DNA of 64,000 nt. Origin: a candidate division WOR-3 bacterium. GTDB lineage: Bacteria; Hydrothermota; Tepidihabitantia; SM23-42; JAOAFX01. A model generated the notes under the pieces. It was given only the letters and a program-made list of their open reading frames with translations. It made no database searches and had not been told where the DNA came from. A program made the translations under genes and the position numbers. Positions within the stretch are counted from its first letter, which is position 1. Each line of letters opens with the position of its first letter. Where the stretch lies: positions 31,227 through 95,226 of the forward strand of contig JBDRVV010000004.1 of the NCBI GenBank assembly GCA_039802005.1, given 5' to 3'. Positions 7,770 to 61,576 of the stretch are shown here, in pieces.

Positions 7770-7940
7770 GGGTAATTTCTTTAAAGTCCCCGCGATTGCC
7801 GTGTGGGAAAAAGTCTCTGAACCCAAGGTTAAAGTGGGCGCCTGTCAACTACAGACAAGTCTGTAGCCAAACTTGGCTCCCTAACGATGGGTGTTGGCTC
7901 AAGACTTAATGCCCATCACGAGCATCGCAGGGAACGAATT
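7770..7940 (-). ncRNA. ssrS: Putative 6S RNA (SsrS)
   Basis: The 205-nt gap downstream of zapA is locally GC-rich and non-coding. On the minus strand the 5' segment ttccctgcgatgctcgtgatggg pairs with the 3' segment cccacacggcaatcgcgggga. A second inner pairing (ttaagtcttgagcc with ggttcagagacttttt) surrounds a central bubble and an apical hairpin (ctacagac-aa-gtctgtag). This matches the 6S closing stem, bubble and terminal stem architecture. The zapA-ssrS order is a widely conserved synteny. Ends are approximate. Confidence 0.5.
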
Positions 7941-29037: not shown

Positions 29038-29069
29038 AAAAGATTTTAGTATTGATTTATATTATCGTT

Positions 29070-29155
29070 GCCGGGATGATGGAATTGGTAGACGTAGCGG
29101 ACTTAAAATCCGCTTCCCCGCAAGGGGAGTGCCGGTTCAAGTCCGGCTCCCGGCA
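29070..29155 (+). tRNA. tRNA-Leu (anticodon UAA), type II with long variable arm
   Basis: A canonical cloverleaf: 7-bp acceptor stem GCCGGGA/TCCCGGC, D-loop AATTGGTAGA, anticodon loop CTTAAAA, variable arm CCCCGCAAGGGGAG and T-arm GCCGGTTCAAGTCCGGC. CCA is not encoded. Confidence 0.85.
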
Positions 29156-29232
29156 TTGTCGTAGTATAAATGCCAACCCCGCCACTTTGTGCGTCGGATT
29201 AAACTTTGGATTTTGACATTTGAAATTTTGAA

Positions 29233-33728: not shown

Positions 33729-34844
33729 CTATAAAGTGCCTTGATATATTCTATATTTTTTATATAACCTACCACCCATTTTTAAAATTGTATTATTTAC
33801 TGGGTAATTATCCTCAAGGGTCCAGCTCAATTCTCCACTATTGTATCCGAGTTTCATTCCGGCCTTCAAAGTTTCAAGGACCATCAATCCTTCAAGGCCC
33901 AATTTTTGATAATCTTTTTTAACCCCCATTATCATCAATCGAGCCTCCTTAATTTTATTTTTGTAATAGAGAAATTTTATCATTCCAAGGAGGTCTAATT
34001 TACCATTTAGTTTTTTTAGAATAAAGTTATAATTTGGTACAGTTAGAGAAACACCGACCGGAACATTATCAATTTCAACAATTATAACCAATTCGGGGAC
34101 AATGAGATCTTTAAGAGTCTTGGCAATATGAGAGAATTCGGAATCAGTCATTGGTACAAAACCCCAGTTTCTGCTCCAGGCGTCGTTATAGATTTCTTTA
34201 ATCTTTTTCACTTCGTTTGAGAAGTCATCAATATCAACCGGTCTTACCTTTAAATCTCTCACCCTTTTACGAATAAGCGAGCACATTTTTTCTAATCTCT
34301 CAAATGGTGCATTTTTTGCTTCAATATAAAAAGCATATAAATCCTTTGCCTTTGTTAGTCCTGCGGCTTGGGCGAGTTCATGGTAATATTCAAATGTATA
34401 TGTCATCATAATCATCGGCTCTAAGAAATAGCCTTCAAGGAGAAATCCCACCTCTTCATTGGTCGAAGGATTGAATGGACCAACAAATTTAGTCATTCCT
34501 TTTTCTTTATGAAATTCGCGCACGGCATTGAATAATGCCACCGCCGACTCTACATCATCTTCGCACTCAAAGAATCCAAAATATCCAGTCTTCTCATTCC
34601 AGAATTCAATAAAATTGTAATCAACTATTGCACAAACCCTACCAACAACTTCCTTATCGCGATAAACAAGAAACATCTCTCTTTCTGCATGCTCCCAGAA
34701 TGGATAATTTTTCTTATCAAACATATTGTAGACATCTTTTTTTAAAGGTGGAACCCAGTAACGGTTATTTTTGTATAAACGATACGGCAACTCTACAAAA
34801 GACTTTAATTCCTTTTCATCTTTGACCGGAACTACTTTTATCAC
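33729..34844 (-). CDS. Long (371 aa) GNAT-superfamily N-acyltransferase-like protein; candidate bacterial ceramide synthase or N-acyl amino acid synthase
   Basis: 371 aa with no signal peptide. The GNAT assignment rests on length and context; no motif was checked. It overlaps by 4 nt the upstream Spt-like gene. Confidence 0.4.
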   Translation of the reverse strand: MIKVVPVKDEKELKSFVELPYRLYKNNRYWVPPLKKDVYNMFDKKNYPFWEHAEREMFLVYRDKEVVGRVCAIVDYNFIEFWNEKTGYFGFFECEDDVESAVALFNAVREFHKEKGMTKFVGPFNPSTNEEVGFLLEGYFLEPMIMMTYTFEYYHELAQAAGLTKAKDLYAFYIEAKNAPFERLEKMCSLIRKRVRDLKVRPVDIDDFSNEVKKIKEIYNDAWSRNWGFVPMTDSEFSHIAKTLKDLIVPELVIIVEIDNVPVGVSLTVPNYNFILKKLNGKLDLLGMIKFLYYKNKIKEARLMIMGVKKDYQKLGLEGLMVLETLKAGMKLGYNSGELSWTLEDNYPVNNTILKMGGRLYKKYRIYQGTL

Positions 34845-36028
34845 TTTACCAGACCAAATTCTTTAGCGCACCGTCTAAATACATCAAGCACGATATTTAT
34901 ATCTTCGTCTGTATGCGTAGCCATATAACTTGTTCTGATAAGTGCCCTGCCCGGTGGTGTGGCAGGAGAAATAACTGGATTGGCAAATACACCATTTTCA
35001 AAAAGGCTTTTCCAGAAGGCAAAACATTTTTCATCTTCACCGATAATCACGGGGATAACCGGGGTTATGCTCTCACCTGTATCAAGCCCGATATCTTTAA
35101 ATCCCTTTCTCACTCTTTCTGTTACTTCCCAGAGTCTTTTCCGGCGTTCTGGTTCAGTCTTTATTATCTCCAGAGATTTTAACGCACTGGCAACTGATGC
35201 CGGGGTCATACTTGCCGAAAATATGAGTGCGCGGGCAGTATGTCTAATGTGGGTTATCACATCCTTTTCCGCTACGACGAAACCACCAAGTGATGCGAAT
35301 GATTTACTGAATGTACCCATGATTATATCAACTTCATTTAATAAATTGAAGTGTTCACATACACCACGCCCGTGCTCTCCCATCACACCAATGCCATGAG
35401 CATCATCTACAAGCAGCCTCGTGTTAAATTTTTTCTTCAGTTTTACAATCTCCGGTAGATTTATTACATCGCCCTCCATACTGAAAACTCCATCTACCAC
35501 AATCAATTTTCCTTTATTATGGGGTATTGATTTCAATATTCTTTCCAGGTCATTCATATCATTATGTTTAAATTTTTTGACCTCAGCGAATGAAAGTCTA
35601 CAACCATCTATGATGGATGCGTGGTCCTGCCTATCTATGATAATAACATCGTCTTTACCCGCAATCGCAGATATTATTCCGAGGTTAGTTTGAAATCCGG
35701 TTGAAAATACAATTCCATCATCTTTTTCAAAAAAATCGGCGAGCTCTTTTTCAAGTCTGATATGAATATCAAGTGTCCCGTTTAAAAATCTTGAACCAGA
35801 ACAGGTCGAACCATATTTTTGAACCGCTTCAATTGCAGCTCTTTTCAATCTTTCATCTGCAGCAAGTCCAAGATATCCATTGGAACCTATCATAATATAT
35901 TCCCTGCCGTTAATCATTACTCTATGGTCCTGTGCTGATTCAATTGGTGTAAAATAAGGATAAATATTTATACTCTTGGCACGATTTACTGCTTCAACGG
36001 TGGCTTTGCATTTTTTAAATATATCCAT
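34841..36028 (-). CDS. Serine palmitoyltransferase-like alpha-oxoamine synthase (PLP-dependent)
   Basis: 395 aa. The motifs are IGSNGYLGL, GSRFLNGTLD, DGVFSMEGD, DDAHGIG and the PLP-lysine motif GTFSKSFASLGG. The TFSKS form is characteristic of Spt rather than BioF or Kbl. Confidence 0.6.
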   Translation of the reverse strand: MDIFKKCKATVEAVNRAKSINIYPYFTPIESAQDHRVMINGREYIMIGSNGYLGLAADERLKRAAIEAVQKYGSTCSGSRFLNGTLDIHIRLEKELADFFEKDDGIVFSTGFQTNLGIISAIAGKDDVIIIDRQDHASIIDGCRLSFAEVKKFKHNDMNDLERILKSIPHNKGKLIVVDGVFSMEGDVINLPEIVKLKKKFNTRLLVDDAHGIGVMGEHGRGVCEHFNLLNEVDIIMGTFSKSFASLGGFVVAEKDVITHIRHTARALIFSASMTPASVASALKSLEIIKTEPERRKRLWEVTERVRKGFKDIGLDTGESITPVIPVIIGEDEKCFAFWKSLFENGVFANPVISPATPPGRALIRTSYMATHTDEDINIVLDVFRRCAKEFGLVK

Positions 36029-36064
36029 TTTTTTATTATAATGAATTTCTCACTAAAGTCAATA

Positions 36065-37394: not shown

Positions 37395-38603
37395 CTAATT
37401 GACAAAAATTATCTTTAAATTCTTTAGTTCATTTTCATTCTGTATATGACAGAAATAAATCCCATTTGGCAGGAGAGTATTCGCTTCATCCCTGCCATCC
37501 CAGGCTACAACATATTCTCCAGAGATTTTGAATTCATGCATCAGCCTCCTCACCAGTCTGCCCGATTCATCGTAGATATTTATCTTTACTATTCCGGGTT
37601 TAGATACATAGTAATTGATATTGACTGATTTGTTGAACGGATTCGGCTGAAGGATAAAATTTTTTGTCGCATCCTTGCCTGCTCGGTCAAATTTTTGGTA
37701 TATTGGAATTAAATGGACAGGTTCACCGGGTTTTAAACAGGCAATTGTGCGATTCGGAATTTCAACCCATCTCTGGCTTGATGTATCAAGTGGTTGGGAA
37801 GCAACGACCCAGAAATTGGAAACCAGGGAATCAGGATAATAGTAAACGGTTATTGCCCTTGGTTCTGATTTTGTAAAATTTAATGCCCATAACTTATTAC
37901 CGTCAGACATCACAAAGTTCAATTGCGCATTACTCGTTCCAAGCGCAGAATCGAGTTTAATAACTGCCATCTTAATACATTCCTCAATTGAAAGATCAGG
38001 GTTCATATCTAAAACTTCAATCATTAGTATGGCGAACAAATCAGAATCAAGATAGTTTGGAGCATAATCAGGAGGATTTTGCTCAAGATATAGAGGATTG
38101 ATTGAAGAAATCAATCTTAGTAAAATGTCCGTATTAATTGTACCATTATGGGCAAAGAGTATATCAAAATTTCTTTTAATACATTGTCTCCGAAAAGGAT
38201 GAGGATCAGGAATGCCACCCGTTGGTCCGCTGGAACTCTTACGCACATGGGCAACTGCAGAATTTTTAACATTTCTGAGTAATTCCTTGGTCATTTCTGA
38301 ATATCTGGGGTCAAGTGGTGCAGATGGCTCTCCACGACGGATAACTGGTAAGATTGTATCGCTTTGGGATTCAATAAAATAAGCAATACCCCAACCATCA
38401 GGATTTTTTGCTCCGAGTTTGCGTAAAGAATCAAGGTGGGTTGTGATAATATCACTAATTGCTGGCGTGTTTTCAGACAATATAATACCCCAGAACCTGC
38501 ACTCATGATTTTGTTCCAAATTTTTCCGGCAGGAAATAGTAAAGGATAAAATGATAAATAGAAAAGTAAAATATGGAATATCCTTATTTTTGCATTGGCC
38601 CAT
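37395..38603 (-). CDS. Secreted class-II (Ntn) glutamine amidotransferase-like protein with lipoprotein-type signal and T9SS C-terminal sorting domain
   Basis: 402 aa. A signal peptide and a lipobox-like FTISC precede an Ntn nucleophile context CRFWGII...DGWGIAYF (GATase_6/EgtC-like). The C-terminus ...PNGIYFCHIQNENELKNLKIIFVN is a T9SS sorting domain. Confidence 0.5.
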   Translation of the reverse strand: MGQCKNKDIPYFTFLFIILSFTISCRKNLEQNHECRFWGIILSENTPAISDIITTHLDSLRKLGAKNPDGWGIAYFIESQSDTILPVIRRGEPSAPLDPRYSEMTKELLRNVKNSAVAHVRKSSSGPTGGIPDPHPFRRQCIKRNFDILFAHNGTINTDILLRLISSINPLYLEQNPPDYAPNYLDSDLFAILMIEVLDMNPDLSIEECIKMAVIKLDSALGTSNAQLNFVMSDGNKLWALNFTKSEPRAITVYYYPDSLVSNFWVVASQPLDTSSQRWVEIPNRTIACLKPGEPVHLIPIYQKFDRAGKDATKNFILQPNPFNKSVNINYYVSKPGIVKINIYDESGRLVRRLMHEFKISGEYVVAWDGRDEANTLLPNGIYFCHIQNENELKNLKIIFVN

Positions 38604-38802
38604 ATTTGAATTATATTGATAGAAGATTTGATGTCAACAAAGTAAAATTTCTAAACAAAAATTTGCTATTGGTTAATGGGCATGACTGCCGGTATGGTCT
38701 TTGGACATTGTCATCTGCGTTAAAATTAAAATTTGGCTATTGTTTGGAGTTTGGTGCTTGGGGTTTGGAATTTAACAATTTTTTGGGGCTTGGTTGATTT
38801 GC

Positions 38803-40218
38803 TCATAGTTTTATCACTGATATTATTATCTTTTCTTTAAGATTGTCAGCACAAATAAAATAAATCCCTGGAGGAACTTCATTTGCGTTTTCATCGTTAC
38901 CATCCCAGATAAAATCCACAATTCCTGATTTTTTTGGTGCTAATTTTTTTAATAATCTTCCGTTAATATCATAAATTTTTATATCAGACAGATCCAAATG
39001 TTCTGAAGGAGCAAATTTGATATATAGTTTTTCCCTGAATGGCGAGGGGAATGTTCTTATCTTGATGGGAGATATAGCTTTTTTGCACAATTCCTTAACT
39101 CCCACCGGGTCAGTATATGTCTTAACGAGATAAGCATTATTATCACCAGCACCATAGGAATTGGTTATGCCAGCAATTATGTATCCATTGTCCGATGTTT
39201 TTTTTACTGAATAAGCACAATCTGTGCCTGTACCACCGTAAAGAAACATCCAGAGATTCAACCCAGAAGTATCTGTTCTTACCACATACATTTCATAACT
39301 GAAGTTACCGCCAATTACATAATTATTTTGACCCACTTCCTGAACTGAGAATGCAGTATCGTTATTCAAACTTCCCTGAAACCTACTCCAAATTAATGTT
39401 CCACGCTGGTTATATCTCAAAAGACACCATTCATATCCAAGCAGTGTAAAATATCCAGTTCCACAAACAATATATCCAGAATCTTGAGTCTGTTGAACAC
39501 AGAATCCCTTTTCATCAAGGTAAGAACCATAGAGCCCTGTCCATTCAATGTCTCCCAGCGAATCTATTTTTACAGTGTAAACATCGCTACCACCATTACC
39601 ATAAGAGTATGTTTCGCCCGTTATAATACAGCCATCATCAAATGTGCTGTTCACACAATATGCGTAATCATCCAAATTCCCGCCATAGGTCTTAAACCAG
39701 ATAATATTACCGGTCGAGTCTATTTTTATCAAAAAGACATCGTTATTGCCTGCGCCTGATGAATTTGTTGTTCCACAAATGAGGTATTTATTGTCATAAG
39801 TTTTAACAATTGAATAACCAGATTCTTCAAGTGAGTCTCCATAGGTTTCTGTCCAGATTGAGTCACCATATTCATTTATTTTGATTAAGAATATATCGCC
39901 CATGCCCTGAGTGAATGAATATGTAGTCCCAAGAATCAAATAATTATTATTATCGGTCGGACAGATTGCATAACCATAATCGTCCTGTGAACCACCGAAA
40001 GTTTTTGTCCAAATCGGATAACCCAATGAATCAACTTTAAAAACATAAACATCATATCCACCATTGCCAAAAGAATTTGTTGAGCCCACTGCAATAAATC
40101 CTTTATCTGAACATTCTATAACGGCACGGGCATAATCATCATTGTCACCCCCGTAAATCCTGCCCCATTTAATCTCAGGACTTTGCATTATGAAGATGTT
40201 AAGAAAAATAAAAAACAT
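38803..40218 (-). CDS. Secreted beta-propeller repeat protein with T9SS C-terminal sorting domain
   Basis: 471 aa. Repeats of about 50 aa have the form TNSFGNGGxDVYxxKxDSxGxxxWTKTxGGxxDDYxY. The C-terminus ...PPGIYFICADNLKEKIIISVIKL is a T9SS sorting domain. Confidence 0.5.
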   Translation of the reverse strand: MFFIFLNIFIMQSPEIKWGRIYGGDNDDYARAVIECSDKGFIAVGSTNSFGNGGYDVYVFKVDSLGYPIWTKTFGGSQDDYGYAICPTDNNNYLILGTTYSFTQGMGDIFLIKINEYGDSIWTETYGDSLEESGYSIVKTYDNKYLICGTTNSSGAGNNDVFLIKIDSTGNIIWFKTYGGNLDDYAYCVNSTFDDGCIITGETYSYGNGGSDVYTVKIDSLGDIEWTGLYGSYLDEKGFCVQQTQDSGYIVCGTGYFTLLGYEWCLLRYNQRGTLIWSRFQGSLNNDTAFSVQEVGQNNYVIGGNFSYEMYVVRTDTSGLNLWMFLYGGTGTDCAYSVKKTSDNGYIIAGITNSYGAGDNNAYLVKTYTDPVGVKELCKKAISPIKIRTFPSPFREKLYIKFAPSEHLDLSDIKIYDINGRLLKKLAPKKSGIVDFIWDGNDENANEVPPGIYFICADNLKEKIIISVIKL

Positions 40219-40296
40219 ACCATTTATATTTTATTAATTGCCAATTGTTTGTCAATTTCCCCCTTGACAGGTTTCAGTTTTTGATTATAATAGGTT

Positions 40297-40932
40297 ATGC
40301 TTTCGAATAGAAGACCATTTTGGTCGAAAAATCTAAAGGTGGATTCAATGGCGGTTTCTAAGAAGGCAATGCGGGATGCAATAGTGGATGCTGCCCGCTA
40401 TATCTTTGCAAGATTTGGATATCGCAAGGCAACGATTGATTCAATTGCCCGTGCTGCACGCAAGGGCAAAAGTTCGGTTTATTATTATTTCAAAAATAAA
40501 GAAGAAATTTTTCTGGCGGTTATTGAAAAAGAAGCAAATGCAGTTAAATCCGAGATAAAAAATGCCCTTGCCTCAGCAACCGACCCGCGTGAGAAACTTA
40601 CAATCTATGTCCTTACAAGAATGCGGGTATTCCATCGCATTGCGCGTTTTTATAGTTCATTCCGCGAGGAATATTTAAAAGAGTATGATTTTATCCAGCG
40701 TTTTCGTGAAAATTATGACCGATACGAAACAAAACTCATTCTTGATATTCTGCGGGAAGGAATCAAAAAAAATATCTTTTCAATTCCGGACCCAGCACTG
40801 GCAGCCGGATATTTTGTAACCGCTCTTAAAGGATTTGAATATCTCTGGGGAACCGAAGAAGATATTGACAAACTTGAGAAAAAGACCGAGGCAATGCTGG
40901 AAATGCTTTATCGGGGCATTCTGAAAAGATGA
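40297..40932 (+). CDS. TetR/AcrR-family transcriptional regulator
   Basis: The protein is about 195 aa from the internal Met at about 40348. An N-terminal HTH (ATIDSIARAARKGKSSVYYYFKNKEEIF) is typical of TetR. Confidence 0.75.
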   Translation: MLSNRRPFWSKNLKVDSMAVSKKAMRDAIVDAARYIFARFGYRKATIDSIARAARKGKSSVYYYFKNKEEIFLAVIEKEANAVKSEIKNALASATDPREKLTIYVLTRMRVFHRIARFYSSFREEYLKEYDFIQRFRENYDRYETKLILDILREGIKKNIFSIPDPALAAGYFVTALKGFEYLWGTEEDIDKLEKKTEAMLEMLYRGILKR

Positions 40933-41001
40933 CAAAAATTTTTTTAGTAATTTTCGACCAAAAAACTAAAATGGTCAAAAATTCTGTAAAGGAGAACATA
41001 A

Positions 41002-43230
41002 ATGAAAAGAATTGCATCATTCATTGTTAATAAACAAGCAATTATTCTTTTTGTAATCACTGTATTGAGTTTTCTGTTCGCATTCTTTTTAAGGAAAATT
41101 GTAATAAATTCGGATTTGAGCAGTTATTTACCGAAGACTGACCCGGCGGTTAAACTTCTTGATTATATCGGTGAAAAGTACCGCGGAAATAGTCTCGCTA
41201 TTGTTATAATAAAATCGGATGATGTTTTTAAACTTGAAACCATAAAAGCCATTGACTATCTCACCCGTCAATTCCGTCAGATTGATGGTGTCACTTATGT
41301 AACGAGTTTAACCAATATCCTTGATATTAAAAAAACCGAAGAAGGATTGGAGATTGGTAAATTGATTGATGAAGATAATATTCCTAATCAGGAGGTCTTA
41401 TACAAAATTAAAGAATATGCACTACGTAAAGAAATTTATCGCAATAAATTGATTTCTGAAGATAGCAAGACGACTCTTATCATCTGTCGTATTGATGGGG
41501 ACAAATCAAAGGTGGCAAAGACGATTGAAAGGGTCACGAAAAATGCAGACTTGCAAAATATTAAAACCTATTTTGCCGGTTTGCCTTTCCAGTTGAATGC
41601 GGTAAACGATATGATAATAAAAGATATAAAAATTCTTTTGCCATTTGTGGCACTGGTGATTTTGTTAATTCTCTATTTGAGTTTTGGTTCATTGCTTCAT
41701 GTTGTATTGCCTTTGATCTCGGTTGGTCTGAGTGCCCTGTGGACTATAGGACTTATGGCATTATTAAAAATCCCTCTCACCATTATCACCAATATCATAC
41801 CTGCGATCCTTATGGCAGTTGGTAGCGCCTACGCGATCCATATAATTTGTAAATTTATGGAAGAAAAAGACGAAAATGTTCAAATACGAGCGAAAAATTC
41901 TTTATCCAAGGTAATTATTCCAGTGTTTCTTGCAGCCCTCACGACCATTATAGGTTTCACATCTTTTATCTTTGGGTCTTATCTTATTATGATACAACAG
42001 TTTGGAGTTTTCACATCTTTAGGCATTATTTTTGCATTTTTGCTCAGTATAACTATAATACCAATAATCCTTGGGAATAGCAAGAATTTGAAATTGAATC
42101 AGCGGCAAAATTTGAATTTTTTAAATCGGATAATGGAACACACTGGATATTGGATTCTTCGCCATAAAGACATTGTCTGGATAGTGGGAGCAGTTATTGG
42201 AATAGGATTTTTGTTCGGTACTTCTTTAATAAAAACAAAGGTGGATTTTCTTGATTATTTTAAAGAGAAAAGTTCCATTCGGATCACCGAAAAGATAATG
42301 GAAGAAAGTTTCGGCGGTTCAGTCCCCATACAGATTCTAATAAAAGGAGATTTACAGGACCCCGAAGTCCTCCTGGCAATGAAAGATTTTCACAATTTTC
42401 TTGATACACTCAAAGGCGTATATCACCCACAATCCATAATTGATTTGATTGAAGAAATGAATGATGCAATGGGCGAAGGGAAAAAAATCCCTGATACAAA
42501 AGAAAAAATCAACAATCTCTACTTTCTTCTTGAAGGTGAAGAAACGATTGAACAACTCATTAACGATGATAAGACTGAAGGCATTATCCAGGCAATGACC
42601 GCGGGTGCATATAATGAAGAAAGCGAATTAATAATTAAAAAAATTCGGGACTACATTAAATCCAAGAATAACGGTCTCTATAACTTTGAATTCACTGGCT
42701 CTGCAGTCGTTTACCAGCATCTGAACCAGAGTCTATTAAAAAGTCAGTTAATCAGTCTTATCATTGCAATTGTTGCGATATTTATCTGTTTGCTCTTTCT
42801 CACCCACTCGCTCTCTGCAAGTCTTTTAGGACTAGTGCCGATCTTTTTCGGATTATCTATTCTCTTTGGAACAATGGGATTTTTAAAGATTCCGCTTGAT
42901 GTTGCAACTGTGCTTTTAGGAAGTATCTGCGTGGGAATAGGTATTGATTACTCAATACATTTTCTCAACCGTTATTCTTACGAGCGTAAGCAAAATAATC
43001 CTGAAAAGGCATTGCTTACTTCAATAAAATATACTGGTAGCGCAATTGTAGTAAATGTATTCACGGTAATGTTAGGCTTTTTAGTTTTAATCTTTTCTAA
43101 TCTTGTACCGGTGATAAGATTCGGTATCTTGCTGGGAATAACAATGCTAAGCACTGGTTTGGGCGCAACCGTTCTTTTGCCCGCAGTTATTTTAAAAACA
43201 AAAGAAAACAAAACAAGGAGAACAAAATGA
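41002..43230 (+). CDS. MMPL/RND-superfamily transporter (12 TM helices, two large periplasmic loops)
   Basis: 742 aa. There are two 6-TM bundles (about 200-360 and 560-735), each preceded by a large hydrophilic loop. The SSD/MMPL-like motif GIGIDYSIHF is present. Confidence 0.75.
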   Translation: MKRIASFIVNKQAIILFVITVLSFLFAFFLRKIVINSDLSSYLPKTDPAVKLLDYIGEKYRGNSLAIVIIKSDDVFKLETIKAIDYLTRQFRQIDGVTYVTSLTNILDIKKTEEGLEIGKLIDEDNIPNQEVLYKIKEYALRKEIYRNKLISEDSKTTLIICRIDGDKSKVAKTIERVTKNADLQNIKTYFAGLPFQLNAVNDMIIKDIKILLPFVALVILLILYLSFGSLLHVVLPLISVGLSALWTIGLMALLKIPLTIITNIIPAILMAVGSAYAIHIICKFMEEKDENVQIRAKNSLSKVIIPVFLAALTTIIGFTSFIFGSYLIMIQQFGVFTSLGIIFAFLLSITIIPIILGNSKNLKLNQRQNLNFLNRIMEHTGYWILRHKDIVWIVGAVIGIGFLFGTSLIKTKVDFLDYFKEKSSIRITEKIMEESFGGSVPIQILIKGDLQDPEVLLAMKDFHNFLDTLKGVYHPQSIIDLIEEMNDAMGEGKKIPDTKEKINNLYFLLEGEETIEQLINDDKTEGIIQAMTAGAYNEESELIIKKIRDYIKSKNNGLYNFEFTGSAVVYQHLNQSLLKSQLISLIIAIVAIFICLLFLTHSLSASLLGLVPIFFGLSILFGTMGFLKIPLDVATVLLGSICVGIGIDYSIHFLNRYSYERKQNNPEKALLTSIKYTGSAIVVNVFTVMLGFLVLIFSNLVPVIRFGILLGITMLSTGLGATVLLPAVILKTKENKTRRTK

Positions 43231-43976
43231 AAAAATACATAAAAATAACCAGCATATTCTTTGTTCTGCTGGCTGCAACTCAAACAATAGCGGCTGAGGA
43301 ATCTTTGAATGCCAATGGGGTTTTAAAGAAAGTTGATGAAGTCCTCATGGCACCCAAAGACCTTTCAGCACTGATGAAAATAAATATCATAAATAAAAAT
43401 GGTGATGTGAAAAATCGGGAAGTCCAGATGTACCAGAAAGGTGATAATAAAAGGTTGGTAAAGGTCTTGGCACCTGCAGATCAGAAAGGAATTGGATTTC
43501 TTTCTTTACCCGATGATGTGATCTATGTCTATCTTCCTGCCTATAAAAAGACCAGACGCATCGCCGCCCATGTGAAAAATCAGAAATTTGTGGGCACAGA
43601 TTTCACCTACGAAGACCTTGAGGCTAAGAAATATTCTGAGAAGTGGCAACCAGAAGGTTTAAAGAATGATGGGGTATTTTACTTACTTGAGCTCAGTCCC
43701 AAACCTGGTCATATCTCCGAATATGCGCGGGTAAATCTGTATGTGCGAAAGGATGATTACTTTCCAGTGAAATCCGAATTTTTCAACAAAAAAGGCGAGA
43801 TGATAAAAAAAATGGAAATCCTGAAAACAGAAATAATAAAAGGATATATCATACCCAAGAACTATCTTATGCAGGACATACGCAGTGGCAATAGAACCGA
43901 AATGGTAATGGAAGAGATAAAGGTTGATACCGGCTTAAAAGATGATATCTTCACGGAGCGAAATCTTGCCCAGTAA
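43227..43976 (+). CDS. Outer-membrane lipoprotein-sorting (LolA-like, DUF1329-type) periplasmic protein
   Basis: 249 aa with a signal peptide. Its start overlaps the MMPL gene stop by 4 nt. The assignment is the family typically paired with MMPL/RND exporters. Confidence 0.5.
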   Translation: MKKYIKITSIFFVLLAATQTIAAEESLNANGVLKKVDEVLMAPKDLSALMKINIINKNGDVKNREVQMYQKGDNKRLVKVLAPADQKGIGFLSLPDDVIYVYLPAYKKTRRIAAHVKNQKFVGTDFTYEDLEAKKYSEKWQPEGLKNDGVFYLLELSPKPGHISEYARVNLYVRKDDYFPVKSEFFNKKGEMIKKMEILKTEIIKGYIIPKNYLMQDIRSGNRTEMVMEEIKVDTGLKDDIFTERNLAQ

Positions 43977-44093
43977 AAAAATTATCCTCTCCTTTACCCC
44001 CCGAAACAAGCCTATCCTGGCGCCACGCCAGGATTCGGGACAGGTTCTCTCCCACAGGCGGAGAGATTAACTGAGAAATCCAAGGAGGTCAAA

Positions 44094-45422
44094 ATGAAAT
44101 TACAAAAAATAAATAAAATAATTATAATATTTTTTGCATTAAACCTTGTCTTCGGTCTTGATTGGTCTGGATATTTTTCCACAGACCATAGATTTCTGAT
44201 AAAAGAATACGCACCACTGTCTTTTGAAGAATACAGACTAACTCTAAATCCCCAGCAGAGCATCTATGATAATATCAAATTCTCCAGCGAAATCTGGCTT
44301 CGTTCATCCGGTCTGCCCGAAATAGAAAATCTTGATGACCTTTTTACAAAGGACAGGATTACACCATTTGAAATTGATATTCGCGAGGCATACATTGATA
44401 TTCTAAAATTTCCTGTGGAAAATATTGATATGCGGATTGGACGACAGCGGATTGCCTGGGGAACTGCAGACAAGATAAATCCCACCGATAACCTGAATCC
44501 CCTTGACCTTGAAGATATCTGGGATTTTGGCAGACATCTTGGGTCAAACGGAATTAAGATTGAAGGCTATATTAAAGATTTTAACCTCTCTTATATCTTT
44601 ATTCCGCGATTCACACCGGCATTATTACCGCAGAATGCATTATACACAAATTATTCTAATATCACACTTCCACCGGGTATCAATCCTGCACAAATTACTA
44701 ACTCAATTTCTATGCCCGATTACAATATAAAGAATTCAATACAAGGATTGCGGGTAAAAAAGAATCTCTTTAACTTTGACTTCTCAATGAGTTATGTCTA
44801 TGGAAGAGATGGCATTCCAATCTTAAAAAATACCACAATTATCCCAGTGGATATGCTCGGTAATGTTAATATCTACAACGAACTTGCCTTTCCTAAAATG
44901 CAGATATTTGGCATGGATTTTGCCGGTGCAATTGGTGATATTGGAATATGGGCAGAAGGCGCATTATTCTTGCCCGAGAGTATTCATTACGAGATTGATT
45001 TATCACAACTGGGAATGGGTGTGCTGGATTCTTTGATTCTTGATAAAAAACCATATGCGAAATTCGTGCTCGGTAGTGATTATACATTCAAAAATGGCAT
45101 TTATATTAACCTGCAGTATGTTCATGGATTTTTCCAAGAGCGTGGCAAAGAAATTGAAGATTACATATTACTCGGTTTGGAATGGAAATTATTTGAAGAT
45201 AAATTGAAACTGATGCCGCTGGCTGGTGGCTTTGAAATTAAGGATTTTTCTGATTTCAAGAACAATTATGCATTTGTTTATGCCCCTGAAATTTCTTATA
45301 AACCAGTTGAAAACTGTGAGCTAATTCTTGGGGCGCGGGTGATTGATGGAAAAGAGATAACAAACTTTGGCAGATTGAAACAGAATGACGAGTTTGTATT
45401 GAAGGCAAGATACAGCTTCTAA
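44094..45422 (+). CDS. Outer-membrane beta-barrel protein (DUF1302-like)
   Basis: 442 aa with a signal peptide, alternating amphipathic strands and a C-terminal aromatic residue (...KARYSF) typical of OMP barrels. Confidence 0.5.
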   Translation: MKLQKINKIIIIFFALNLVFGLDWSGYFSTDHRFLIKEYAPLSFEEYRLTLNPQQSIYDNIKFSSEIWLRSSGLPEIENLDDLFTKDRITPFEIDIREAYIDILKFPVENIDMRIGRQRIAWGTADKINPTDNLNPLDLEDIWDFGRHLGSNGIKIEGYIKDFNLSYIFIPRFTPALLPQNALYTNYSNITLPPGINPAQITNSISMPDYNIKNSIQGLRVKKNLFNFDFSMSYVYGRDGIPILKNTTIIPVDMLGNVNIYNELAFPKMQIFGMDFAGAIGDIGIWAEGALFLPESIHYEIDLSQLGMGVLDSLILDKKPYAKFVLGSDYTFKNGIYINLQYVHGFFQERGKEIEDYILLGLEWKLFEDKLKLMPLAGGFEIKDFSDFKNNYAFVYAPEISYKPVENCELILGARVIDGKEITNFGRLKQNDEFVLKARYSF

Positions 45423-45512
45423 TTAGCTAGACAGTTAAGGGTAAATATTTATCTTATTTACGGAAATGTAGGGCAAGCCTGTAAAGGTTCGCCCTTGCTT
45501 TAATGTAGTAAA

Positions 45513-46943
45513 TTATTCAATTTTTACCAGTTTCTTGGTAATTATGTGACTATCCTTTTTCAATTGAACAAAATAGACACCGGGGACTGTTAGCGATGAG
45601 ACTTTCTGCCCATCTATGCGGTAGATTGACAATTGTGCATCCGCAGGATGATAAATTATTTTTGACTGTTTAGTAAATGGATTTGAAAATAATAATTGCA
45701 AATCAGATTGGACTGGTTTGTTTTTCGCAAATTCTTCGACTCCGATTTGATTCAGACACCGTGAGAAATAGATATCGGGATTAGTTTGCCCATTGCGACA
45801 ATCACACCAGAGTGCAGCAATATACTGACTTCCTGCAGTACAAGCAGTGTAGTCACCAATAAATGTATTGGCGTATGCCACGGTATCCGACACCCTTTGA
45901 TTGACACTCCAGGTAGTTCCATAATTTGTTGAGTATGCATAGTACTGACCAATCCAGTATCTACTCCGGCCTCTGGTATCATGCCAGACAACATGGAGAT
46001 TGTCATTCGGGTCAACTGCAATCCAAGGATAGAATTGCAAGGTAGTATCACCCGCAGGTGTATCATTTATCTTGACCGGTGTTGACCAGTTAACACCCTG
46101 GTCTGTTGAACGCGAAAAACTAACATCCAGTTGATTACTACCCCAGCGTGAATCAGCAAAGACAACATATAAACGTGTTCTATCCCTGCTCGTCGCAAAT
46201 GAAGGTATATTGTTTAGACGATAAGGTGTAGTAGGAGGACTCCAAGGGCAGGTTATAATCGTTTGCTGTCCGAGCCAGGTAGCACCTAAATTAGTTGATC
46301 TGTTCAAACGGATGTCCTGCATTCCCCAGCCAACGAATAAATTCTGCCCGGTCCCACGGAAAGCCATAGTTCCGTTACCTCCAGAGCCAATTGAAACCGC
46401 GGTAGACCAGGTCTGTCCGTAATCAGTAGAATATTTGAATCTCAATGCCCCGGTTCCACCATAATCATACCAAGTCAAAAACATATAATTCCCATCAACT
46501 GTTGCCCAGGGTTTATCATCAAGGGTATTGGGTGTGTTTGGTGTTAAACAAAGCGATGTTCCCCAAGTCTTACCCCAATCACGGGATTTAGTCAGAAAAA
46601 TATCACCGGTATAGTTTGATGCATTGTAGGATAGCCAGACATAACAGATATGCCCTGAATCATTTACCACAATGCAAGGATCGCAATCCCCAGGATAGGT
46701 TGGTTCATACATTAAAGTCTCAGCCCAAGTTGTGCCGCTATTGGTAGAACGGGCAAAACCCACATGATATGTACCCGTGCGATTATCATTCCAACCCCCG
46801 CAGAATAATGTATCCTGATAGTTTGCCATGGTCGTTTCATTTTGATTGCCTGTGCCCGGGTCCTGGCTTACCTTTATATTCGGTATCCATGGTGGATTTG
46901 CAAAGGCCGCTCCGCATAATAAAAGCAAAATAATGGATCTCAT
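45513..46943 (-). CDS. BNR/Asp-box repeat glycosidase (sialidase-like) with T9SS C-terminal sorting domain
   Basis: 476 aa with a signal peptide. There are at least five Asp-box repeats (SxDxGxTW: STNSGTTW, STDYGQTW, STNLGATW, STDQGVNW, STNYGTTW). The C-terminus ...PGVYFVQLKKDSHIITKKLVKIE is a T9SS sorting domain. Confidence 0.65.
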   Translation of the reverse strand: MRSIILLLLCGAAFANPPWIPNIKVSQDPGTGNQNETTMANYQDTLFCGGWNDNRTGTYHVGFARSTNSGTTWAETLMYEPTYPGDCDPCIVVNDSGHICYVWLSYNASNYTGDIFLTKSRDWGKTWGTSLCLTPNTPNTLDDKPWATVDGNYMFLTWYDYGGTGALRFKYSTDYGQTWSTAVSIGSGGNGTMAFRGTGQNLFVGWGMQDIRLNRSTNLGATWLGQQTIITCPWSPPTTPYRLNNIPSFATSRDRTRLYVVFADSRWGSNQLDVSFSRSTDQGVNWSTPVKINDTPAGDTTLQFYPWIAVDPNDNLHVVWHDTRGRSRYWIGQYYAYSTNYGTTWSVNQRVSDTVAYANTFIGDYTACTAGSQYIAALWCDCRNGQTNPDIYFSRCLNQIGVEEFAKNKPVQSDLQLLFSNPFTKQSKIIYHPADAQLSIYRIDGQKVSSLTVPGVYFVQLKKDSHIITKKLVKIE

Positions 46944-50235: not shown

Positions 50236-50506
50236 CTTAGACAAGTTAACCTGAATCCTTATTGCTTTCCCTTTTCTGGAAATTTTAAGTTCTCATACTA
50301 AATGTCAATATGCGCTTCTTTTTCCGCAATCTATTATAGCACGTATTAGCCCATATATAAGTTCCAATCCCCCTCTTTCCCCCTTTCGTAAAGGGGGATA
50401 ATGGGGGATTATTGAATGAGAAACCAAAACTTCTGATAGTTAAGAAAAAATTCAGGAACGATCTCTTCATATTGAAAAATGTGGAGAGGATAGTCAGCAA
50501 GTTAAC

Positions 50507-60643: not shown

Positions 60644-61576
60644 ATGAAAATACTTGTTACTGGCGGTGCAGGTTTTATTGGTTCACATATTGTAGATGCT
60701 TATATAAATGAAGGTCATAATGTAGTAATCATTGATGACCTCTCAACCGGTGATATTAAAAATGTAAATTCTAAGGCAATTTTTGTCAAACAGGATATCA
60801 TTAGTCATGAAATTGAAGAAATATTTAAAAGATATAACTTTGACATTGTAAACCATCATGCAGCCCAGATAAATGTGCGTCGTTCTCTTGACGATCCATT
60901 ATTCGATGCCAAGGTAAATGTAATGGGTTCGCTAAATTTACTCAGTCTTTCTGCAAAATATAATGTTAAAAGGTTTATTTTTGCTTCAAGTGGCGGTGCC
61001 ATCTATGGGGAACCCGAAAAATTCCCTATCACCGAAGATTTTAAACCCGAACCACTATCTCCTTATGGTGTTGCAAAACTCACGGTAGAAAATTATATAA
61101 AAGTTTTTGCAAGACTATATAATTTTGATTATGTAATTCTGCGGTACAGTAATGTATACGGTCCAAGACAGATCTCCAAGAGCGAGGCGGGTGTCATATC
61201 AATATTCATAAACCAGATCCTTGAAAATAAAGAATGTTTTGTAAATGGTGATGGTAACCAGGTACGAGACTATGTCTATGTTGGAGATGTAGTAAAAGCA
61301 AATCTCTATGCCCTTAATTCCTGCCCGGGATATTTTAATATTGGCACCGGAATCGAAACCAGTGTCAACGATTTGCTTGATATTTTTAGCACAATACTTA
61401 AAAAAGAGATAGCCCATAAACACCGGGAACCAATACCAGGAGAAGTATTCAAGAATGTCCTTGATTATTCTAAAGCGAGAAAAACTTTTAACTGGTCGCC
61501 CGAAGTTCCGTTGATAAAGGGAATTGAGCTAACCTATAGATATTTTTATAATGAAAGGCAAGGCAAGGTATCTTGA
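60644..61576 (+). CDS. NAD-dependent epimerase/dehydratase (UDP-sugar 4-epimerase-like SDR)
   Basis: 310 aa with an N-terminal GGAGFIGSH Rossmann motif and YxxxK catalytic dyad context (SPYGVAK). Confidence 0.75.
   Translation: MKILVTGGAGFIGSHIVDAYINEGHNVVIIDDLSTGDIKNVNSKAIFVKQDIISHEIEEIFKRYNFDIVNHHAAQINVRRSLDDPLFDAKVNVMGSLNLLSLSAKYNVKRFIFASSGGAIYGEPEKFPITEDFKPEPLSPYGVAKLTVENYIKVFARLYNFDYVILRYSNVYGPRQISKSEAGVISIFINQILENKECFVNGDGNQVRDYVYVGDVVKANLYALNSCPGYFNIGTGIETSVNDLLDIFSTILKKEIAHKHREPIPGEVFKNVLDYSKARKTFNWSPEVPLIKGIELTYRYFYNERQGKVS

Follow-up and report, generated by a model that had tools for sequence, protein, structure and literature searches.

The closest described relatives of the locus studied here are proteobacterial cassettes that encode DUF1302, DUF1329, BNR and HAE3-type RND proteins. 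Genes of these families show cofitness, and a role in the export of an envelope component has been put forward for them; DUF1302 and DUF1329 have been predicted to form a complex, and AmeABCD, which comprises an HAE3 RND transporter, DUF1302, DUF1329 and BNR proteins, has an efflux phenotype. Three such cassettes (AmeABCD of Castellaniella defragrans, Sama_1588-1591, and PP_0765/0766 with PP_2018/2019) were compared with a four-gene module found in 64,000 nucleotides of DNA from a candidate division WOR-3 bacterium (assembly GCA_039802005.1, contig JBDRVV010000004.1, positions 31,227 to 95,226; this whole stretch is hereafter called the window). The module encodes a TetR-family repressor, an MMPL-type inner-membrane transporter (the pump), a periplasmic LolA-fold protein (the carrier) and an outer-membrane beta-barrel. 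On balance, it is interpreted as a repressor-controlled, three-compartment relay for an endogenous hydrophobic envelope lipid.

The module resembles the proteobacterial cassette in that an HAE3-type RND transporter, a LolA-superfamily protein and a DUF1302-type barrel are encoded together, and both systems are proposed to move hydrophobic or envelope molecules. It differs from the cassette in lacking the BNR/Ycf48-like (COG4447) component, no BNR family being found in the operon or among the accessory families of 81 related loci. The carrier is a short PF17131 form of 249 aa instead of a DUF1329 protein of ~450 aa, and the barrel is ~100-150 aa shorter than the DUF1302 proteins of the cassette and falls below the Pfam threshold. 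The order regulator-pump-carrier-barrel is also unlike that of the cassette, the regulator is a TetR protein with a conserved operator-like motif rather than a LuxR or AraC protein, and the hosts belong to the FCB group and other mostly uncultured phyla rather than to Proteobacteria. The literature search found no paper on this variant of the module, which is a hitherto unstudied version of the DUF1302/DUF1329/HAE3 cassette and probably a lipid exporter.

Other known systems share single features with the module. HpnN (hopanoid), MmpL3 and other MmpLs (mycolate, siderophore) and BstABC (sterol) are RND lipid exporters of the MMPL/HAE3/Patched type, like the pump, and BstABC also uses periplasmic and outer-membrane-associated partners; the partners in the module (LolA fold, DUF1302-like barrel) however belong to other families, and its pump has one Asp-Tyr pair only. 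LolA2 and LolB2 of flexirubin (aryl-polyene type) clusters are an example of a LolA-fold protein in a lipid or pigment operon that is thought to act in outer-membrane delivery, and these clusters also encode an MMPL-type exporter; they differ from the module by another LolA subfamily, a LolB-like lipoprotein instead of a barrel, and a polyene pigment as cargo. In Caulobacter, LptC2/F2/G2 and a flippase are encoded beside spt and have been suggested to deliver sphingolipids to the outer membrane. This clustering of transport genes with spt parallels a lead discussed below, although the Caulobacter system is paralogous to the ABC-type Lpt bridge rather than composed of RND, LolA-fold and barrel proteins, and is itself unproven. 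According to two papers of 2024 no bacterial sphingolipid flippase or transporter is known, and DUF1302, DUF1329/PF17131 and LolA3 proteins are widespread with no assigned function. More generally, the transfer of lipids other than lipopolysaccharide and lipoproteins to the outer membrane of diderm bacteria is largely unsolved.

Gene order and conservation of the module

A first, sequence-only reading of the window had reported four co-directional genes, a 4-nt overlap between the MMPL and LolA-like genes, a 117-nt leader of the barrel gene with two GC-rich hairpins, and an Spt/GNAT gene pair about 5 kb away. All of these were recovered (Table 1): the four genes correspond to forward-strand open reading frames (ORFs) at 40297-40932, 41002-43230, 43227-43976 and 44094-45422, the tetranucleotide ATGA at 43227-43230 is common to the MMPL stop and the LolA-like start, the spacer before the barrel gene (43977-44093) is 117 nt long and contains both hairpins, and the Spt/GNAT pair lies 4.3-5.4 kb upstream of the module. 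The observation is therefore confirmed, and its interpretation is partly supported.

Table 1. Coordinates of the module genes, of associated sites and of the Spt-GNAT pair in the window
Feature	Position	Strand	Remarks
GNAT gene, unnamed family	33729-34844	-	371 aa; paired with Spt-like gene
Spt-like gene	34841-36028	-	4-nt overlap with GNAT gene
Sigma-70-type promoter of TetR gene, TTGACA-16 nt-TATAAT	40264-40291	+	Consensus scan, 12/12
Operator-like site O1, TTTCGAATAGAAGACCATTTTGGTCGAAA	40301-40329		29-nt palindromic motif between -10 box and 40348 start
TetR-family repressor gene	40348-40932	+	Most likely start; 194 aa; longest ORF 40297-40932
Operator-like site O2, TTTCGACCAAAAAACTAAAATGGTCAAAA	40952-40980		Second palindromic copy, 22 nt 5' of MMPL ATG
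MMPL/HAE3-type inner-membrane RND transporter gene	41002-43230	+	742 aa
Periplasmic LolA-fold carrier gene (PF17131)	43227-43976	+	249 aa
Hairpin 1, TCCTGGCG-cca-CGCCAGGA	44015-44033 (44014-44034 with one extra pair)	+	Exact, unique in window
Hairpin 2, TCTCTCC-cacaggc-GGAGAGA	44046-44066	+	Exact, unique in window
Outer-membrane beta-barrel gene, divergent short DUF1302-like	44094-45422	+	442 aa; Shine-Dalgarno AAGGAGG at 44082-44088
Imperfect hairpin between convergent gene ends, then UGCUUUAAU	45468-45498		Fold of 45423-45512, z = -2.0

Conservation was examined by a scan of one genome per species, in which relatives of the barrel gene were found in at least 457 species genomes; the best 80 loci were analysed (81 for the counts of lipid genes) and are numbered here with the prefix L. 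These 80 loci come from WOR-3, TA06, Cloacimonadota, Aminicenantes, Elusimicrobia, Zixibacteria, Latescibacterota, KSB1, Stahlbacteria, Mcinerneyibacteriota, Kryptonia, Chlorobiota, Spirochaetota, Bacteroidota and Desulfuromonadota-like metagenome-assembled genomes (MAGs). Synteny was counted in the 45 loci that extend 6 kb or more upstream of the barrel gene, where an MMPL gene was always present (45/45), a LolA-like gene nearly always (41/45) and a TetR gene in 36. In 34 of the 45 all three were found, co-directional and in the same order, as was also seen in independent genomic contexts, and this core synteny extends over WOR-3, TA06, Cloacimonadota, Aminicenantes, Zixibacteria, Latescibacterota, KSB1, Elusimicrobia, Spirochaetota, Bacteroidota, Kryptonia and Desulfuromonadota-like MAGs.

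In some genomes the module is duplicated (L058 and L074 are from one KSB1 MAG) or accompanied by an additional divergent LolA-TetR pair (L025). As different lipid genes adjoin each copy, it is suggested that the paralogues are specialised for different cargoes.

Identification of the encoded components

The profile matches of the pump indicate an RND transporter of the MMPL/HAE3 type and not an AcrB-like protein. Pfam MMPL (PF03176) matched in two stretches (1.5e-54, 185.7 bits), and the best NCBIfam model was TIGR00921 (HAE3; 9.5e-87, 291.7 bits), at a score that misses the curated cut-off of 351.9. The ACR_tran profile, taken as the criterion for AcrB/CusA-type pumps, gave 16.2 bits for a cut-off of 28. 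Matches to HpnN, BstA and MmpL3/4 were weak, with all equivalog models far under their cut-offs, and the sequence relatives in the PDB are distant (MmpL4 at 5e-10, then Dispatched, HpnN, NPC1 and Patched). A crude hydropathy scan predicted ~12 hydrophobic segments and large loops at residues 31-210 and 410-582. The C-terminal half contains the Asp-Tyr motif GIDYSIH, and the N-terminal half reads GSAYAIH vs GTDYGIF in MmpL4. The sequence-only reading had stated that a drug or metal RND pump with a membrane-fusion protein as partner would speak against lipid export. Such an identity (HAE1/HME) was ruled out because the pump is MMPL/HAE3-like, with the low ACR_tran score given above, and because its partners are a LolA-fold protein and an 18-strand-type barrel instead of a membrane-fusion protein and a TolC-like protein.

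The carrier matched PF17131 (LolA_like, listed as TP_0789-like in precomputed annotation tables) at 8.6e-52 and 175.9 bits for a threshold of 30; all 37 of its relatives match the family too. DUF1329 (PF07044), the family named in the first reading, reached 17 bits vs 23.1 and only over the C-terminal part of the profile. An AlphaFold2 model of the carrier (pLDDT 89.7) was compared with known structures using Foldseek, and the closest was LolA3 of Porphyromonas gingivalis (9TP6; E 2e-20, TM 0.78), followed by 4Z48, 3BK5 and 3BUU. The TM values are 0.78-0.80 for 9TP6 and 4Z48 and ~0.45 for canonical LolA. A profile search matched the LolA3 structure with E 1.3e-36 at an identity of ~25%. The N-terminus is of the signal-peptide-like type cleaved by signal peptidase I (SPI) and has no Cys, which is present in 11 of the 37 relatives; these may be lipoproteins. 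The curated LolA models failed on the carrier (LolA1_Flavo 20 bits vs 100, LolA3_fam 24 vs 83), and no LolCDE or LolB genes were found in the module.

LolA3 (9TP6 of P. gingivalis, Fjoh_0605 of Flavobacterium johnsoniae) is like the carrier in its enlarged sheet, its C-terminal helix and its periplasmic, SPI-type nature, and it stands outside the canonical LolA-LolB route, as is proposed for the carrier. LolA3 of P. gingivalis does not pair with LolB and is devoid of the LolA/LolB hallmark residues. The low identity and the missed NCBIfam LolA3 model however separate the carrier from LolA3.

By its profile scores the barrel is a distant relative of DUF1302 that falls outside the family as curated. 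DUF1302 (PF06980) gave 20.6 bits vs 23.2, with residues 93-140 alone matched; the profile was matched at E<=0.01 by 38 of 41 barrel relatives (best 5e-11), and Alginate_exp by 6. A sequence search against the PDB gave zero matches, and a fold search was used instead. The model resembles 18-strand channels (OprD/Occ, chitoporin, maltoporin), including the exporters AlgE and Wzi, which agrees with the 18-stranded OccAB/AlgE-like barrel reported for DUF1302. A C-terminal Phe is present in all 41 aligned relatives, and signal-peptide-like N-termini support an envelope localisation of the components. The subfamily comprises 360 clusters (50% identity) at E<=1e-30, usually 430-480 aa long, and a WOR-3 entry of the public databases is 100% identical to the barrel of the window. 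Of the domain assignments proposed from the sequence alone, TetR, MMPL, the LolA fold and a relationship to DUF1302 were thus retained, and DUF1329 and DUF1302 membership were not, both being under the Pfam thresholds.

Residues 112-149 of the barrel (window 44430-44540) form the most conserved stretch of the family (RIGRQRIAWGTADKxNPTDNLNP, with many invariant residues). They are the sole part matching the DUF1302 profile and also the worst-modelled one (pLDDT < 50), and may serve as a plug loop or for docking.

TetR gene and operator-like sites

The first gene of the module matched TetR_N (PF00440) at 2.1e-13 and 50.2 bits, above the Pfam cut-off of 24. Its start, read earlier at 40297, was moved to 40348 as the most likely position, since the first 17 codons of the longer ORF are unconserved, the upstream ATG of relatives is in another reading frame than the gene, the operator-like site O1 falls within the extension, and the ATG at 40348 follows a Shine-Dalgarno sequence (AAAGGTGGA). 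The -35/-10 pair of the TetR promoter is kept in loci L008, L010-L012 and L026, and a similar pair is found in L049.

The motif of O1 and O2 has the consensus TTTYGA-N17-TCRAAA, for which 34 matches were counted on both strands over 1.24 Mb vs 2.1 expected in shuffles. The motif occurs at the same two positions in the close relatives L007-L012 and L026, O2 being kept between the TetR and MMPL genes in L007-L012, and it is also found 5' of TetR genes in loci of Spirochaetaceae (Spirochaetota), Bacteroidota and Kryptonia. Beyond O1 and O2, the sole match in the 64-kb window (with 3 mismatches) falls inside an unrelated gene. Another operator pattern, GACCA-N4-TGGTC, gave zero matches, the true spacing being N3, and was replaced by the 29-nt motif. 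Predicted palindromes, as expected of a TetR operator at its own and/or target gene, are thus present at both, and we infer that TetR represses its own gene and the pump operon via O1 and O2. The probe 40220-40300, suggested earlier for electrophoretic mobility shift assays with TetR, ends one base short of O1. The conserved motif provides a handle for an inducer search.

The ligand class of TetR could not be read from its relatives in the PDB, which do not discriminate between the explanations discussed below because QacR-type and FadR-type proteins both appear (MtrR is among the nearest).

A divergent sigma-70 promoter (40255-40228, - strand, 11/12) stands back to back with the TetR promoter and belongs to the gene at 38803-40218, which encodes a protein with a type IX secretion system (T9SS) tail. 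From these two near-perfect consensus promoters at 40228-40291, the organism evidently uses canonical -35/-10 promoters.

Lipid genes associated with the module

All ORFs of the loci were clustered and the recurrent families annotated. Genes inserted in the core or adjoining it are overwhelmingly lipid-related: a lipid-metabolism gene lies inside the core span in 28 loci, and inside it or within two genes in 34 of the 81. The accessory genes include patatin-like lipases (13 loci), GT2 glycosyltransferases (11), KASIII/FabH (10) and radical-SAM/SPASM proteins (7), PlsC-type acyltransferases are also recurrent, and DUF3108, methyltransferase, thioesterase and MprF-like LPG_synthase domains are rarer. 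The patatin proteins are probably cytoplasmic, as they start directly at the catalytic G-G-x-R-G motif and have no signal peptide. The association with lipid synthesis gives substance to the lipid-export interpretation of the first reading, which had likened the module to pumps paired with DUF1329 and DUF1302 proteins; the BNR partner of that cassette is missing.

Two arrangements illustrate the diversity of the insertions. In the Bacteroidales locus L082, the module is followed by genes for a CDP-alcohol phosphatidyltransferase, a myo-inositol-1-phosphate synthase, PgpA, GtrA, Spt and GNAT, a cluster which we take to resemble the inositol-lipid and sphingolipid genes of Bacteroides. In the TA06-type locus L001/L016 (3364-9368), the order is KASIII, split GNAT, membrane protein, GT2, MMPL, LolA-like, radical SAM/SPASM and barrel, the radical-SAM enzyme thus sitting between the carrier and barrel genes.

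The Spt-like protein of the window appears by sequence closest to the serine palmitoyltransferases (SPTs): its best PDB matches are SPTs (3A2B at 7.7e-129), ahead of KBL (2.1e-72) and BioF (2.8e-62), and it reaches 560 bits with NF047600 for a cut-off of 640. The 371-aa GNAT protein gave no NCBIfam match, no PDB match and only a weak match to PF00583, and may be an alternative or divergent ceramide synthase. The two genes form a real conserved pair, since of 80 metagenome loci centred on relatives of the GNAT gene, 45 have an Spt-like gene next to it. No CerR-like gene was found beside the pair in a partial Pfam scan of the window ORFs, which returned only an unrelated sugar-nucleotide epimerase (60644-61576).

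Searches of the loci with tblastn placed GNAT relatives within ~10 kb of the module in ~9 loci of 7 phyla, between the TetR and pump genes or nearby (TA06, WOR-3, Cloacimonadota, Zixibacteria, Mcinerneyibacteriota, Bacteroidota and KSB1). Spt relatives were within the same distance in 5 loci of 4 phyla. Four of these directly adjoin the module (Aminicenantes, a Pelobacter-labelled MAG and KSB1), and in L082 the distance is ~6.4 kb, on the downstream side of the barrel gene. As a control, purB was near the module in 1 locus outside the window's own synteny group. The proximity of spt to the module seen in the window recurs in several phyla; the reverse test, described below, was negative.

Proposed function and alternative explanations

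From the observed gene order, families, predicted folds, synteny and lipid neighbours, and from the conservation of the promoter and operator-like motifs, we infer the DNA binding and ligand of TetR, the direction of transport, the hand-over between components and the nature of the cargo as follows. TetR would bind O1 and O2 and keep the operon off until a lipid-like ligand frees it. The MMPL/HAE3 pump would then draw an amphiphilic or hydrophobic molecule from the inner membrane at the expense of the proton gradient and hand it to the soluble LolA-fold protein, whose translation would be coupled to that of the pump through the ATGA overlap. The carrier would shuttle the cargo over the periplasm to the DUF1302-like barrel for insertion into the outer membrane or for release. 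The cargo would most likely be an endogenous, lineage-specific membrane lipid, and in this genome the candidate is a ceramide-like product of the Spt-GNAT pair. The module would thus be a compact and apparently autoregulated system, present in many phyla, with lipid-synthesis genes interleaved in a third of the loci.

Several observations weigh against this relay or against its sphingolipid version. No lipid gene adjoins the core in ~47 of the 81 loci, and the operon of the window itself is without a biosynthetic gene. The Asp of the Asp-Tyr pair is missing from the N-terminal half of the pump, F. johnsoniae mutated in LolA3 shows neither a gliding nor a T9SS phenotype, and xenobiotic efflux pumps just as typically have a TetR repressor of their own. 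As to the Spt-GNAT pair, it lies in the window 4.3 kb off, on the other strand, and is separated from the module by purB and two T9SS-tail genes; a promoter of its own (TTGACT-17-TATAAT) is present at about 36029-36057, and the scan of the 64-kb window found no copy of the operator-like motif near Spt. In a complete WOR-3 genome, purB-Spt-GNAT occurs without the module within 10 kb. In the reverse test, the pump, carrier and barrel were found in 0 of the 80 GNAT loci whose flanks were searched.

The first alternative is inducible efflux of, and tolerance to, exogenous hydrophobic toxins (terpenes, solvents, free fatty acids, bile-like compounds), in the manner of AmeABCD and with TetR as the sensor. 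AmeABCD confers monoterpene tolerance and Nile Red efflux, TetR operators at the own and pump genes are the classic layout of drug pumps, QacR and MtrR are among the nearest TetR structures, and the missing biosynthetic genes of the window operon would be in accordance with such a role. The lipid-biosynthesis genes found in or beside the module in 34 of the 81 loci are however unexpected for a xenobiotic pump, the pump is far from the HAE1 drug pumps (ACR_tran 16 bits), and its partner is a closed-cavity LolA fold and not a membrane-fusion protein. This explanation is credible but unlikely, and under it the module would be an ordinary AmeABCD-type variant.

More specific than the lipid relay in general is the idea that the module serves specifically to bring ceramide or sphingolipid-type lipids made by Spt-GNAT to the outer membrane, and other special acylated lipids in other lineages. 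The negative reverse test makes it less likely and, with the complete WOR-3 genome, the separate promoter and the missing operator, leads us to consider the association with Spt-GNAT as limited to some lineages, the gene pair being far more widespread than the module. The sphingolipid link is accordingly taken as a lead only, and in this full form the idea is rather unlikely. If true, it would provide the first identified bacterial sphingolipid transporter, made of an RND pump, a LolA3-type carrier and a DUF1302-like barrel with no Lpt-like bridge, and the orphan superfamilies LolA3/PF17131 and DUF1302 would gain a function.

An improbable alternative is the uptake or scavenging of hydrophobic nutrients (fatty esters, lipids), with entry through the barrel, a LolA-like shuttle and indirect support by the RND protein. 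The DUF1302/DUF1329 genes of Pseudomonas putida are required for growth on Tween 20 and butyl stearate, the barrel model is like the substrate channels of the OprD/Occ, chitoporin and maltoporin types, and the commonest accessory gene encodes a patatin-like lipase. RND transporters however move substrates outward, the patatins, without signal peptide, are probably cytoplasmic, and the accessory genes are biosynthetic (KASIII, acyltransferases, GT2, Spt) and not catabolic. A branch of lipoprotein sorting, in which acylated proteins would reach the outer membrane bound to the LolA-like protein, is suggested by the LolA fold of the carrier, by its name in the public record ('outer membrane lipoprotein-sorting protein') and by the N-terminal Cys of 11/37 relatives, but is highly improbable given an RND pump as partner instead of LolCDE, no LolB-like gene in the module, curated LolA1/LolA3 scores of 20-24 bits for cut-offs of 83-100, the LolB-independence and missing hallmark residues of P. 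gingivalis LolA3, and a lolA3 deletion without lipoprotein-related phenotype.

Spacer hairpins and other features of the window

The spacer before the barrel gene folds better than shuffles (z = -2.9), and the fold prediction has CCUCUCCUU (about 43986-43994) paired to the Shine-Dalgarno sequence of the barrel gene, a pairing specific to this genome. The two hairpins had been proposed as an attenuator or internal terminator. A conserved role of this kind was ruled out because the spacer is hypervariable among close relatives and a U-tract is missing: the spacer is 8 nt in L006 (the closest), 22 nt in L008 and ~10 nt in L010, the spacers of L007, L009, L011 and L012 contain unrelated GC-rich palindromes, and the terminator scan found no U-tract after the hairpins on the + strand. 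The function of the hairpins is doubtful, and they resemble palindromic elements that have inserted at a permissive position. Palindromes of the form CCCCCTTT...AAAGGGGG occur in the module spacers of L011 and L012, at 50378-50398 of the window and in intergenic DNA of related WOR-3 genomes, and may be repetitive extragenic palindromic (REP)-like elements.

The imperfect hairpin between the barrel gene and its convergent neighbour may possibly be a weak bidirectional terminator, at a level under the U-tract threshold of the terminator scan. The BNR gene beyond it (45513-46943, - strand) was considered as the missing member of the cassette and rejected, as it is convergent, encodes a T9SS C-terminal sorting domain and is present only in L006 and L009. 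The two T9SS-tail proteins encoded between purB and the module (37395-40218, - strand) have, for one, a class-II glutamine amidotransferase-like domain and, for the other, SBBP/beta-propeller repeats. The window also contains a 6S RNA (7783-7936, - strand, 73 bits) and a tRNA-Leu(UAA) (29069-29156, + strand).

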